Below, piece after piece: positions 16,977 to 58,346 of a stretch of DNA of 64,000 nucleotides. The notes under the pieces are model-generated. The model searched no databases. It worked only from the letters and a program-made list of their open reading frames with translations, and was not told where the DNA came from. This DNA is from a bacterium (GTDB lineage: Bacteria; UBA8248), in NCBI GenBank assembly GCA_963692865.2, contig OY843592.1, positions 1,696,001 to 1,760,000 of the forward strand. Reading direction: 5' to 3'. Position 1 is the stretch's first letter. The number at the start of each line of letters is the position of its first letter. The position numbers and the translations under genes were made by a program.

Positions 16977-17531
16977 GTGGAGCCTCTCGATCCGCGTAAA
17001 GACAGCGCTGTTCCCGGTGAGCGCGCCATCGACAAGCCCGAACTTCCCACGCAGGGCTATGCCTTCACCATGTCCGCCGACGCCGAAACGATAGAGGGAA
17101 AGGGCCAACTCAAACAGGGGACGCACAGACATTTCGAGGTGTATTGCGACGAGCCGCCCCGCATCGGCGGTGAGGATTCCTACCCCCAGCCGCTTTGCTA
17201 CATCGCCATGGGGGTGGGGTTCTGACTCCTGACCCAGCTTGCGCGGTACGCGCATATGATGAAAGTCTCCTTCACGCACGCCAGGGTGCGCGTGGATTTC
17301 GATTACTTTTTGGGGGGTTCCGTCTTGAAGGGCACGGTGAGTGCCGGCTGCAACGAAGTACGCACGCACTTCGAGGTGGAATCCGATGAACCGGCGGAGA
17401 AAATTCTGGCGGTCATCAAGAACGCGAAGCAAGGCTGCTTCGCCGAACAAATGGTGACGGCCGCCGTTCCGCTGAAAAGCACCGTGAACCTGAACGGCGA
17501 ATCTATCTCTCTGAGCGGCGTTACGGCGTAA
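16977..17531 (+). CDS. OsmC-like selenoprotein (TGA 17223-17225 read as Sec)
   Basis: ORFs 16953-17225 and 17256-17531 are in the same frame, separated by one TGA: DEPPRIGGEDSYPQPL..GVGF-U-LLTQ...KQGCF. The TGA sits at the OsmC peroxidatic Cys position. Hairpin at 17240-17254. AAGGAG RBS before GTG 16977. Confidence 0.8.
17240..17254 (+). promoter_or_regulatory. Putative bacterial SECIS hairpin
   Basis: tgcgcg-GTA-cgcgca. The loop G is the 21st nt after the in-frame TGA. Confidence 0.6.
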
Positions 17532-54014: not shown

Positions 54015-54252
54015 CTGGAAAAGCGAAAAATCACTCCCCTTGAGAATCGGACTTCCCGTGAGGAAAGCCCGAAATCGCGCCGGTTGGGGGTCGGTTCCGA
54101 CTGGAAGAGAATGCCGTCCAGGTATGCGTTGGACTTGGGGGAGGAATGAAACTTCTGCGGTGAGGGCGAAAGCCGCCTCGTCGTGGTAAGGTGGCGTTTC
54201 ATCAGACAGGTAGTAACGATATGAAATTCTCACAGTTGGAACGGAGGTGGAA

Positions 54253-55677
54253 ATGAGCGCCGATGGACTGAATTTTCTCTCAATATATGAACTCGCCCAG
54301 CAAATCGAGGGCAAGGAAATCTCCCCGCGCGAGGTGGTGGACGCGCATTTGCGCCAAATCGAGGCCCTGAACCCCGAACTCAACGCGTTCATCACCGTAT
54401 GCGCGGACGATGCCCGTGAGGACGCGGCAAAGGCGGAAAGCGAGATTCAGGGCGGCCGCTACCGGGGGCCTTTGCACGGCGTGCCGGTCGGCATCAAGGA
54501 CATCATCGATACCGCCGGCGTCCTCACGACGCAGGGGTCGAGCTTTTTCCCGGATAACGTCCCGGCGGAGGACGCCGTGTGCGTGAGTAAGCTGAAAGAA
54601 GCGGGCGCCGTCATCGTCGGCAAATGCAACACGCACGAGTTCGCGGCGGGCTCCACCACGGTGAACCCCCACTACGGCCCGGCGCGCAACCCCTGGAATC
54701 CCGAGCGGGTCTCGGGCGGTTCGAGCGGCGGTTCGGGCGCGGCGGTGGCGGCCTATATGTGTCCGGGCGCCGTGGGAACCGACACGGGCGGCTCCATCCG
54801 GGGCCCCGCGAGCGCATGCGGGACGATGGGCCTGAAACCCACCTACGGGCGCGTGAGCCTGCGCGGCATTTTCCCGAACTCTACGACCCTCGACCATGCA
54901 GGGCCCCTCGCGCGAACGGCGCGCGATTGCGGCCTCATGCTACAGGTCATGGCGGGCTACGACCCGGCGGACCCGGGCTCCAGGGACCGCGAAACGCCCG
55001 ATTTCTGCGCCCTGATAGGCGAGGGCGTCGAGGGAATGCGATTCGGCGTCTGCGAGGACCTCTATCTCCCGGAAAACGACGCTTCGGTGCAGAAAGGCTT
55101 CGAGGATGCGATGGAGACCATGAAGGCTCTGGGCGGCGTGGTCGTTCATGTGCGCTATCCGAACGCCGAACGGATGAGAGAGGCGCGGCGCATCATCGCC
55201 AGCGCCGAACTGGCGTCGGTTCACCGCGAGCGCTTCGACGAGCACCCCGAGATGTTCGGCGACGACGTCCGCGAGCGCCTGGAGGTATCGAGCCGCGTGA
55301 CGCTGGATGAATACGCGCTCGCCATGAAAGAACGGCGCACGCTCACCCGCGAAATGGAAAAAGTGTTCGATGAGATCGATATATTCCTGGCGCCCGGCTA
55401 TCCCTGCCCCGCGGGACCCGTTGCGACGGAGACGGGAACGGTGAACGGGAAGGAGTTCTCCTTCACGGGCCTCGGCAGACCGCAGACGGGCCCGTACAAC
55501 CTCTTCGGTTTCCCGACCATGGCGGCGCCTTCGGGCTTCAGCGCGGACGGCCTGCCCGTGTCGGTGCAGATCGTGGGGCCGCCCTGGGAGGAGGCCCGCG
55601 TGCTGCAGGTCTCCCATGCGTTCGAGGAAGCCATTCCGGAGGTCCGGAACAAGAAGCCGCCCATGTTCGGCGGGTGA
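54253..55677 (+). CDS. Amidase signature family protein
   Basis: GPLHGVPVGIKD, GGSSGGS, GTDTGGSIR.PA and KPTYGRVS motifs. Confidence 0.93.
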   Translation: MSADGLNFLSIYELAQQIEGKEISPREVVDAHLRQIEALNPELNAFITVCADDAREDAAKAESEIQGGRYRGPLHGVPVGIKDIIDTAGVLTTQGSSFFPDNVPAEDAVCVSKLKEAGAVIVGKCNTHEFAAGSTTVNPHYGPARNPWNPERVSGGSSGGSGAAVAAYMCPGAVGTDTGGSIRGPASACGTMGLKPTYGRVSLRGIFPNSTTLDHAGPLARTARDCGLMLQVMAGYDPADPGSRDRETPDFCALIGEGVEGMRFGVCEDLYLPENDASVQKGFEDAMETMKALGGVVVHVRYPNAERMREARRIIASAELASVHRERFDEHPEMFGDDVRERLEVSSRVTLDEYALAMKERRTLTREMEKVFDEIDIFLAPGYPCPAGPVATETGTVNGKEFSFTGLGRPQTGPYNLFGFPTMAAPSGFSADGLPVSVQIVGPPWEEARVLQVSHAFEEAIPEVRNKKPPMFGG

Positions 55678-55762
55678 TTTGTCCGATCATTTTCTTAGGG
55701 AATTATATACATGACTCGACAATTGGATTCCGGGCTTTGGATTTGAAAAGGAACGATGTAAT

Positions 55763-55934
55763 CACTCCCCCCTTGAGGGTCGGGCATCCCGAGGGGAATG
55801 CCCGACGGTGAAGCCGAGCGGTTTGTGCGAAGGCTGAACCGGTGGGGGGTATGCTTCTAAAATAACAGCTCCCCCCACCAGCGCGACTTCGGGCTTCGCC
55901 CTCGTCTTGCTGACTCCCCCTCAAGGGGGGAGTG
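55763..55934. repeat. CCCTTGAGGG-family palindromic element (uninterrupted copy)
   Basis: cactccccccttgaggg ... ccctcaaggggggagtg with internal hairpins. Confidence 0.8.
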
Positions 55935-56074
55935 AGAAAAACCCAAGCATGAGGGAGTGGTTTTCGAGAGGGAATTATGAATTCAACTGCTAGATTCTTT
56001 ATGAATTGACCACTCAAAAGAAGTTGTCAATTCAAGTATATAATTCCCTTTTCTTATTATGAGGGTATAGAGAC

Positions 56075-56923
56075 ATGACGCAAACCGATAACTCCGCGCT
56101 CGTTTCGGGGGCGTGGCTCGCAGAACGCCTGGGCAGTCCGAATCTCCACGTCATCGAGGTTTCCTCCGCGAGCGACGACGCCTCCTACCGCGAAGCCCAC
56201 GTGCCGGGCGCGCACTGGTGGTTCTGGAAAGGGGCGCTCTGGCACGAGACGGACCGCGCGTTCGCCGCGCCCGAGGCACTGGCAGAGCGTCTGGGCGGGA
56301 TGGGAATCGGGCCGGATGATGAAATCGTCTTGTACGGCGATCCGGTGCAGTTCGGCACCTACGCCTTCTGGGTGCTCAAGATGGCGGGTTTTCAGAACCT
56401 GAAGCTGCTGGACGGGTCCAAGAAAAGGTGGATTGCCGACGGGATGCCCGTCTCGAGCGATGCGCCGAGTACTACCGCCGTCGCCCACCCCGCGCCGGAT
56501 GGAGGAGAGATCTTGGGCGTGGGCAGGGACGACATCCGCAGGAAACTCGGAGAACCGGGCAGGGTGCTGCTCGACGTGCGCTCGCCCGAGGAATACAGGG
56601 GCGAGCGGGTGATGCCGCCTCCCGGTTTCGACCACGGGGCCGAGCGCGCGGGCCGCATACCGGGGGCCGCGCACCTGTTCTTCCGGGAACTACTGAACGA
56701 GGACGACACTTATAAAGACAAGGAGGAGCTTGCGCGGATTCTCGGTGCTGCTGCCGCCGCGCCCGATGACGAGATCGAACTCGTCCTCTACTGACGCCTC
56801 AGCCACCGGGCCAGTCTGGTCTGGTTCGCCATGCGGTATCTGCTGGGTTATGAAGACGTGAAAATCTACGACGGCTCATGGACGGAATGGGGGAGCATCG
56901 TCGGTTTTCCGATTGAGAAGTGA
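56075..56923 (+). CDS. Two-domain rhodanese/sulfurtransferase selenoprotein (TGA 56792-56794 read as Sec)
   Basis: Reading through the TGA gives [36 protein letters not shown]...PIEK*, which restores the catalytic loop (normally YC) and the YDGSWxEW signature. Hairpin at 56806-56824. Confidence 0.88.
56806..56824 (+). promoter_or_regulatory. Putative bacterial SECIS hairpin
   Basis: ccgggcca-GTC-tggtctgg (8 bp including two G-U pairs). The stem starts after an 11-nt spacer and the loop G is the 20th nt after the TGA. Confidence 0.6.
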
Positions 56924-56990
56924 AGGAATCTCGTAAATCGGCGTAGGGACAACCCCCTGTAGTTGTCCTGCGTTCGGACAGGCACGGGGC

Positions 56991-57318
56991 GAGGTTGTTG
57001 AAAAAGTCTTGGAAAGCGATTTTGAGTTTCACGCCCGCTTTTGACGTTCACTCCCCCCTTGAGGGTCGGTCTCCCTCGGGGAAGACCGACGGTGAGCTAA
57101 GGGCATATGCCCGCAAGCGAACCGGTGAGGGGTATAATTGAAATTGCACGATAAAACACGATTTACCCCCCACCGCATCAGCCTTCGCACAAACCGCTCG
57201 GCTTCTGCGTTGGGCTTTCCCCTCGGGAAGCCCAACCCTCAAGGGGGGAGTGGTTCTTCTCTCTCATCTGTTGATTCTAAACGCCAAACCACGAAATAGA
57301 GGGTTTTTCAACAACCCC
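56991..57318. mobile_element. MITE-like element with IS1182-type ends containing a CCCTTGAGGG element (57049-57252), itself inside a GTAG REP doublet (56943-57332)
   Basis: Ends ggttgttgaaaaag / gggtttttcaacaacccc. The flanks ggacaggcacgggg.. and ..gcctgtccctac are the two halves of one REP hairpin. Confidence 0.75.
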
Positions 57319-57365
57319 ACGCCTGTCCCTACGATATGCTCGTGGCGTGGGGCAAAGACGGAAGA

Positions 57366-58346
57366 TCATTTCACGGGATAGAGCGGCTCCTCCCCCCGCA
57401 GGACGCGCAACACGTCCGTCGCCGCCTTTCGCCTCATGTCCTCGAGAGCCGCCGTGCTGTACCACGCGCTGTGCGGCGTGACGCGGCAGTTGGGGAGGGC
57501 GAGCAGCGGGTGATTCGGCGGGGGAGGTTCTTCTTCGAGCACGTCGAGGCCCGCGCCCCGGATGGCGTTTCTCTTGAGCGCGGCGGCCAGCGCCCGCTCG
57601 TCCACCAGTTCGCCGCGCGCCACGTTGATCAAAACGGCGCTCGACTTCATCCGTTCGAGCGCTCCGGCGTTCACCATGCCCCGGGTTTCGGGCGTCAGGG
57701 GCGCGTGCAGGGAGACGTAGTCCGCCTCCTCCCAAATCCGGGCGAGCGCCGCGTTCTCGGCCCCCGGTTTCTCGAATGCGGATTCGGGCACGAAAGGATC
57801 GTGCGCGATGACGCGCATCCCGAAGGCGCGCGCCTTCTCCGCCAGGGCCGCGCCGATCCTCCCGATTCCCACCACGCCCAGCGTCGCGCCCCGAAGCGGG
57901 GCGATGGGCCGAAGCGCGGCGATCCCCCAGCCGCCTTTTTCGACTTCCGCGATACCTTGCTCCAGTTTTCTGGCGAAGTAGAGGATGAGCGCCATGGCGT
58001 GATCCGATACTTCATCGACGCAGTAATCGGGCACGCAGGTGACCAGAATGCCCTTTTTTCTTGCGGCCTCCAGGTCGATGTTGTCCACGCCCACGCCGCC
58101 GCGCGCGAGAATCTTGCAGCGTCTTAGCTTGGCGATGACGTCTACCGTGAAGGCAGGAATCGAACCGATGATGACGCTTTCCGCCTCCCGGCAGAGTTCG
58201 ACCAGGGATTCAGCGTCCGCTCCCATCCCCAGACGAAGGCGGGAACCCAGAGGCGAGAGGATTTCCTCCTCGACCGTGGGGGGGCCGAAGCGCGTTCCGG
58301 CGACGGCGATGAGCGGGCCGTCTTTTGCGGGTGGACTCAATACCAT
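57366..58346 (-). CDS. D-2-hydroxyacid dehydrogenase (CtBP-like)
   Basis: R.GVGVDNID, VPDYC.DEVSDH, GIGRIG, INVARG and TPHSAWYS motifs. Confidence 0.9.
   Translation of the reverse strand: MVLSPPAKDGPLIAVAGTRFGPPTVEEEILSPLGSRLRLGMGADAESLVELCREAESVIIGSIPAFTVDVIAKLRRCKILARGGVGVDNIDLEAARKKGILVTCVPDYCVDEVSDHAMALILYFARKLEQGIAEVEKGGWGIAALRPIAPLRGATLGVVGIGRIGAALAEKARAFGMRVIAHDPFVPESAFEKPGAENAALARIWEEADYVSLHAPLTPETRGMVNAGALERMKSSAVLINVARGELVDERALAAALKRNAIRGAGLDVLEEEPPPPNHPLLALPNCRVTPHSAWYSTAALEDMRRKAATDVLRVLRGEEPLYPVK

Follow-up and report, generated by a model that had tools for sequence, protein, structure and literature searches.

Sulfurtransferases of the COG2897 type with selenocysteine (Sec) have been predicted since 2005, when, in an analysis of the Sargasso Sea, a 'rhodanese-related sulfurtransferase' (COG2897), represented by three sequences and with the SECIS element in figure 3, was presented among 15 new selenoprotein families (PMC1088965). 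In 2007, a study on the Olavius symbionts counted 'sulfurtransferase COG2897' among the known selenoprotein families (PMC1976440). A 2026 review distinguishes five Sec-containing rhodanese forms, of which form 4 is the Sargasso one with the motif UxxG and form 3, with the motif CxU, is represented by the family rhodanese_LYCAU (NF041203) (PMC13188914). A full-text search that covered few subscription journals retrieved predictions and reviews, and no biochemical study of a Sec rhodanese. On the genomic side, three MAGs designated 'Nitrospinota/Nitrospinae' and belonging to the GTDB phylum UBA8248 are, in the BSepDB publication, in the top ten of bacteria by selenoprotein genes, with 48-54 such genes (PMC13326102), and the host genome of the gene described here is probably part of this selenoprotein-rich UBA8248 group, given that a Nitrospinota bacterium is recorded as the origin of one member in a database cluster close to the protein; one BSepDB supplement file contains none of the terms 'rhodanese', 'UBA8248' or 'OsmC'.

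The gene at 56075-56923 of the 64-kb window (the whole stretch of DNA that was analysed, 64,000 nt) is, with a probability of roughly 0.9 as judged from comparative sequence evidence, a real selenoprotein gene which encodes a tandem-rhodanese sulfurtransferase with a predicted Sec at the catalytic position. As in the Sec-containing COG2897 family, a tandem rhodanese has Sec for the catalytic Cys, Cys homologues and a SECIS-like hairpin, and both are computational predictions only. Compared by motif, the published form 4 has UxxG, while the sequence found here is U-R-L-S (UxxS), within a loop of the CR(L/M)SHRA type; a paralogue in the same genome, with U-Q-T-G, fits form 4 better than the UxxS gene does. 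The family rhodanese_LYCAU is likewise a rhodanese-domain selenoprotein, but it is single-domain, with 126 positions and Sec two residues after a Cys, whereas the gene in the window encodes two domains; membership in NF041203 was rejected at 35.6 bits against a cut-off of 115. Against this literature the gene appears new as a genus-specific member of a type predicted since 2005, and the known picture of selenoproteomes is unchanged by it.

The features of the gene are as follows:

56061..56065, + strand: Shine-Dalgarno-like GAGGG, read from sequence only, 9 nt upstream of the ATG
56075..56923, + strand: full predicted selenoprotein coding sequence, tandem-rhodanese sulfurtransferase, 282 residues (U240) plus terminal TGA
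56096..56464, + strand: N-terminal rhodanese domain, about residues 8-130 (Pfam; limits approximate)
56531..56893, + strand: C-terminal catalytic rhodanese domain, residues 153-273 (best Pfam stretch)
56792..56794, + strand: in-frame TGA, predicted U240, first residue of the active-site loop U-R-L-S-H-R, aligned to the catalytic Cys
56804..56833, + strand: nucleotide-invariant stretch, codons H244-M253, in 21 orthologues, with synonymous variation suppressed
56805..56825, + strand: putative bacterial SECIS hairpin with a 9-bp stem and the apical loop GUC (56814-56816)
56921..56923, + strand: true stop codon (TGA in 9, TAG in 6 and TAA in 6 of 21 orthologues)

The ATG at 56075, backed by the N-termini MT(Q/P)(T/A)D common to the orthologues, opens 239 sense codons, after which the TGA at 56792-56794 ends the open reading frame of translation table 11. 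Past this codon the frame runs on through 42 sense codons (RLSHRAS...) up to the TGA at 56921-56923, and the 282-residue frame through the internal TGA that the preliminary description had proposed agrees with the sequence in its start, its internal TGA and its end. A scan for sigma-70 promoters between 55600 and 57400 returned no sites. Public gene calls for the rhodanese protein end at 237-239 aa (21 among the best 120 database clusters) and lose the catalytic residue together with the last 42 residues; one close database cluster carries the name 'rhodanese-like domain-containing protein'. For annotation this means that public gene sets mis-call the predicted selenoprotein as a 239-residue protein.

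The rhodanese family PF00581 matches the protein twice, with 104.4 bits against a cut-off of 22.2 (E 5e-30, best stretch 153-273), and the best solved-structure match is the Thermus thermophilus rhodanese 1uar (E 5e-59, residues 8-282), followed by the Mycobacterium tuberculosis CysA/SseA thiosulfate sulfurtransferases. An AlphaFold (AF2) model from a 30-row alignment (pLDDT 86.9, pTM 0.88), weak at residues 269-276 with pLDDT below 50, matches 1uar in Foldseek with a TM of 0.85 and an rmsd of 2.6 Å. The two-domain fold is shared with 1uar, 3hwi, 3aax and 3hzu (T. thermophilus; M. tuberculosis CysA2/CysA3/SseA) at TM 0.84-0.86 and 36-38% identity, and these enzymes have the same active-site strand-loop-helix with an Arg after the catalytic residue, but Cys in a loop C-R-I-(A/G)-E-R-S where this gene has the predicted Sec in U-R-L-S-H-R-A. 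In the alignments U240 stands opposite the Cys of the Y-C-R active-site loop of 1uar and 3aax, and in the model it is located between strand 235-239 and helix 243-256, the canonical catalytic place. The block Y239-C240-R241-L242-S243-H244-R245-A246 is invariant in 29/29 full-length database homologues (58-65% identical), and the earlier placement of the TGA exactly at the active-site Cys of the second rhodanese domain thus holds against 1uar as well as against all 29 homologues.

Active-site loops of thiosulfate sulfurtransferases (TST) read CRxGx(R/T) and those of 3-mercaptopyruvate sulfurtransferases (MST) CG(S/T)GVT. The loop U-R-L-S-H-R resembles the TST type in its Arg residues at positions 2 and 6, but has Ser at position 4, and the NCBIfam 3-MST equivalog NF008557 reaches 86.8 bits, below its cut-off of 250. 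In tandem rhodaneses the N-terminal domain is structural and inactive. In the protein described here, strand 83-89 and helix 92-103 of the model mirror strand 235-239 and helix 243-256, with G88-D89 at the place equivalent to U240-R241 of the catalytic domain, and with this dipeptide in place of U240-R241 the N-terminal domain is presumably non-catalytic and structural, by analogy.

The protein was searched against 40 related genomes and all 51 sampled genomes of the phylum. Within the genus, 21 of the 22 other genomes carry the internal TGA, namely in 20 whole genes and in one gene split over two contigs, with the TGA on the C-terminal piece (G003); the remaining genome (G017, 79% complete) holds the last 36 codons only, at a contig end, and its TGA site is not covered. 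None of the 22 has a Cys codon at the site. The 20 whole congener genes, at 77-93% protein identity, have exactly one in-frame TGA each, and the TGA lies in the same column in 22/22 Sec-type sequences. While the terminal stop of the 21 full-length orthologues varies among all three stop codons, the internal TGA is kept in 21/21, from which it follows that this lineage uses TGA as an ordinary stop, with constraint on the internal one only.

Outside the genus, TGA occurs at the site in none of the 38 matches listed in the phylum sample (35-69% identity), one of which, at a contig edge, has TAG, and the codon is TGC in 8/8 homologues fetched from other genera. The Cys orthologues (P0018-P0121), which come from sister genera of the family and from Rokubacteria, Chloroflexota and Tectomicrobia MAGs and are named 'sulfurtransferase' or 'thiosulfate/3-mercaptopyruvate sulfurtransferase' in databases, are 54-65% identical over the full length and share the block Y-C-R-L-S-H-R-A, but they have TGC at the catalytic codon, their hairpin region varies synonymously, and the eight fetched have no 3-nt loop initiated by G. 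The pairing of Cys and TGA, which had been suggested as a check of the selenoenzyme, is therefore found both at the codon level (TGC in 8/8 fetched) and at the protein level (Cys in 29/29 database homologues). The genus-level switch from TGC to TGA and these Cys orthologues would form a clean natural Cys/Sec pair, which lets one ask what selenium buys a persulfide-carrying enzyme.

A hairpin follows the internal TGA, as had been noted before, although with a spacer of 10 nt; the 11 nt given previously apply only if the closing A-U pair is left out. It extends from A56805 to U56825 with 9 bp, the loop G56814-U-C56816 and -12.0 kcal/mol, and the G of its small apical loop, which begins 19 nt past the UGA, is in keeping with a SECIS-like element; the spacing rule of bSECISearch is 16-37 nt. 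A search of the whole window with Rfam at gathering score returned two tRNAs only and no SECIS family, a null result which is uninformative because bacterial SECIS elements are short. As stand-alone evidence, the stability of the hairpin was dropped in favour of the invariance of silent sites: the 91-nt fold of 56780-56870 is no better than shuffles (z = -0.80), and one of the eight Cys homologues (L050) forms, at the corresponding position, a hairpin of the same stability (-12.2 vs -12.0 kcal/mol), since the codons for H-R-A-S-L-V-W are inherently self-complementary.

In the 21 orthologues, synonymous variation is found in 107 of 134 amino-acid-invariant degenerate codons gene-wide and in 0 of 8 such codons within H244-A252. 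The 10 nucleotide-invariant codons H244-M253 are the longest such run in the gene, the next longest having 4, a length reached in 0 of 100,000 shuffles, and 56804-56833 is the sole 30-nt window with 0 variable sites against a gene mean of 15.1. Judged by these sequence comparisons, the putative SECIS element exceeds chance by conservation and not by stability. The hairpin is identical in 22/22 Sec sequences and consequently offers no covariation or compensatory base-pair change to prove the structure; with its stability unexceptional and L050 folding equally well, constraint on codons or amino acids could account for part of the invariance. Ser247 is encoded by AGT in 21/21 Sec orthologues, so that the stem is closed and the loop begins with G, whereas the eight fetched Cys homologues have TCN or ACC at this position and loops of 4-8 nt without that G.

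The genome possesses the complete Sec machinery. selA (E 1e-151), selB (391.7 bits, cut-off 242.25; its match overlaps that of selA by about 0.5 kb in search coordinates), selD (334.6 bits) and tRNA-Sec (76.7 bits, cut-off 47) are all found, each above its curated cut-off. The selD gene has its own in-frame TGA, and this TGA-bearing gene is the usual Sec-type SelD. Two tRNA-Sec matches with identical scores occur, at G000:C1:1207504-1207596 and G000:C4:29719-29811, which may mean that the gene is duplicated or that contigs are redundant or contaminating; the assembly has an estimated contamination of 6.69%. Further genes of this genome that were examined for a candidate Sec codon are:

G000:C1:65915-66877, - strand: selD (locus L019), TGA in G-G-U-G-S-K-L-G, followed by a long hairpin with the loop GGA
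17052-17531 of the window, + strand: OsmC-like gene (PF02566, E 1.3e-12), TGA 17223-17225 in G-F-U-L-L-T
G000:C1:2395379-2396161, - strand: second tandem-rhodanese gene (locus L045), 32% identical, with A-Y-U-Q-T-G-Y-R

The OsmC-like gene bears out the statement of the preliminary description that the window holds a second such case. OsmC-like proteins (UxxT) are a known selenoprotein family, and every match to this gene listed for 25 related genomes, three paralogues in the host genome among them, has one TGA. The second rhodanese is TGA-bearing across the genus, in the congeners listed, and a third rhodanese paralogue (G000:C1:729477-730316) has Cys. The three further candidate Sec codons examined are each followed by a hairpin whose 3-nt loop has G in first position, 17-20 nt past the UGA: GGA in selD, GUA in the OsmC-like gene, where the hairpin lies 20 nt downstream of the TGA, and GGC in the second rhodanese, 17 nt after it. 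A scan for read-through TGA codons based on GC3 was too noisy to be used; among nine candidates inspected by eye, the OsmC-like gene (17223) was the one convincing case, and the remaining eight resembled out-of-frame or non-coding artefacts or, in the case of 48274, an ordinary stop.

An internal TGA can have more trivial causes. From TGC to TGA takes one base, and public callers do end the protein there in the 21 clusters mentioned, as would be expected of a nonsense mutation in the catalytic Cys codon of a decaying gene. Such a pseudogene is nonetheless very unlikely, as 21 of 22 congeners (77-93% identity) retain the TGA, with start, length and stop position conserved and neither a frameshift nor a second stop in any congener gene. 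Moreover, the 42 codons downstream of the TGA differ by 176 synonymous vs 32 non-synonymous codon differences in 20 non-independent comparisons with the host genome, a pattern of sequence change which places these codons under purifying selection. Even less credible is an error of sequencing or assembly that replaced TGC or TGT, the outcome which the preliminary description had named as fatal to its reading: neither codon was found at the site in contigs of the runs X1 (depth about 40, covering 55906-57076) and X3 (depth about 6.7, covering 55915-56916), both with 0 differences to the window. As these runs possibly are the source sample, they give no independent support; this comes from the 21 congeners that have the same TGA. 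In the RNA run X23, positions 56349-56917 are covered by a contig from a relative with 79 differences, 121 differences falling outside the listing; contigs being no proof of transcription or translation, it does not count as evidence here.

Somewhat less remote, but still improbable, is that read-through of the UGA yields something other than, or in addition to, Sec, by near-cognate insertion of Cys or Trp, or that termination there is regulated, with a 239-residue non-catalytic product and a minor full-length form, the ratio of which could be shifted by the selenium supply. This proposal has to contend with a complete Sec system in the genome, with a hairpin architecture that is common to the other candidate Sec codons and strictly conserved in its nucleotides here, and with TGA otherwise acting as an ordinary stop for which TAA or TAG can stand in; the truncated product, which would lack the entire active-site loop as well as the final helix and strand of its domain, would be unlikely to fold. 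The interpretation as a selenoenzyme, which had been put forward from sequence alone, is supported by the conservation of the TGA, the pairing with Cys, the hairpin and the Sec machinery together.

Read as a selenoprotein gene, the locus would encode a 282-residue cytoplasmic tandem-rhodanese of the thiosulfate-sulfurtransferase type with U240 as the catalytic residue of the C-terminal domain. At the UGA of 56792-56794 the hairpin 56805-56825, with G as the first nucleotide of its loop, would recruit SelB-GTP-Sec-tRNA(Sec), and we infer that Sec is inserted at 56792 in place of termination, while the TGA at 56921, without such an element, would terminate translation. That the enzyme may transfer sulfur or selenium is a reasonable proposal, and from homology a double-displacement cycle may be envisaged, in which U240 would act as a selenolate, cradled by the loop U-R-L-S-H-R where helix 243-256 starts, and take over a sulfane sulfur (or selenium) from a donor, for example thiosulfate or a persulfide. 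From the resulting enzyme-Se-S(-) intermediate, or Se-Se(-) if selenium is carried, a thiophilic acceptor would then receive the atom. Such chemistry, its substrate and any selective advantage of Sec over Cys are what we infer.

With respect to its origin, the Sec form may go back to a Cys enzyme and have arisen at the base of a single genus. Most of the hairpin would already have been latent in the codons for H-R-A-S-L-V-W, and AGU for Ser247, fixed in the Sec lineage, would have closed the stem and provided the G of the loop; the gene would then be an example of how a SECIS element arises where conserved codons already hold a latent hairpin. A wider proposal combines several of these elements: that an independent and recent genus-level conversion from Cys to Sec took place in a CRLSHRA-type subfamily of two-domain UxxS proteins, one that would be missing as a separate form from current selenoprotein catalogues; that the near-SECIS nature of the H-R-A-S-L-V-W codons and AGU for Ser247 eased this conversion; and that the enzyme, in a lineage that has dozens of selenoproteins and two Sec rhodaneses, might carry selenium, as Se-Se or Se-S, towards SelD and not just sulfur. 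As a conjunction of all its parts this proposal is speculative and on balance doubtful.

The neighbours of the gene in the window are:

54247-55677, + strand: amidase-signature enzyme (PF01425, E 4e-118)
57366-58346, - strand: D-2-hydroxyacid dehydrogenase

In the genus, the amidase is located upstream of the Sec rhodanese in 19 of 20 loci, with a gap of 41-70 nt in 12 of them, and the 2-hydroxyacid dehydrogenase is convergent with it in 16 of 20. Within 500-nt flanks of eight Cys homologues outside the genus no amidase was seen, and these observations are too few to suggest a pathway common to amidase and rhodanese. The rhodanese gene lies between two MITE-like repeats (55697-56049 and 56986-57323), each some 340 nt long and with terminal inverted repeats; a 17-nt core of this repeat occurs 10 times in the 64-kb window, and in the sequencing runs compared the contig depth over parts of the repeats reaches up to about 80-fold the depth of the rhodanese gene. 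In the host genome the upstream copy is inserted between the amidase and the rhodanese gene.
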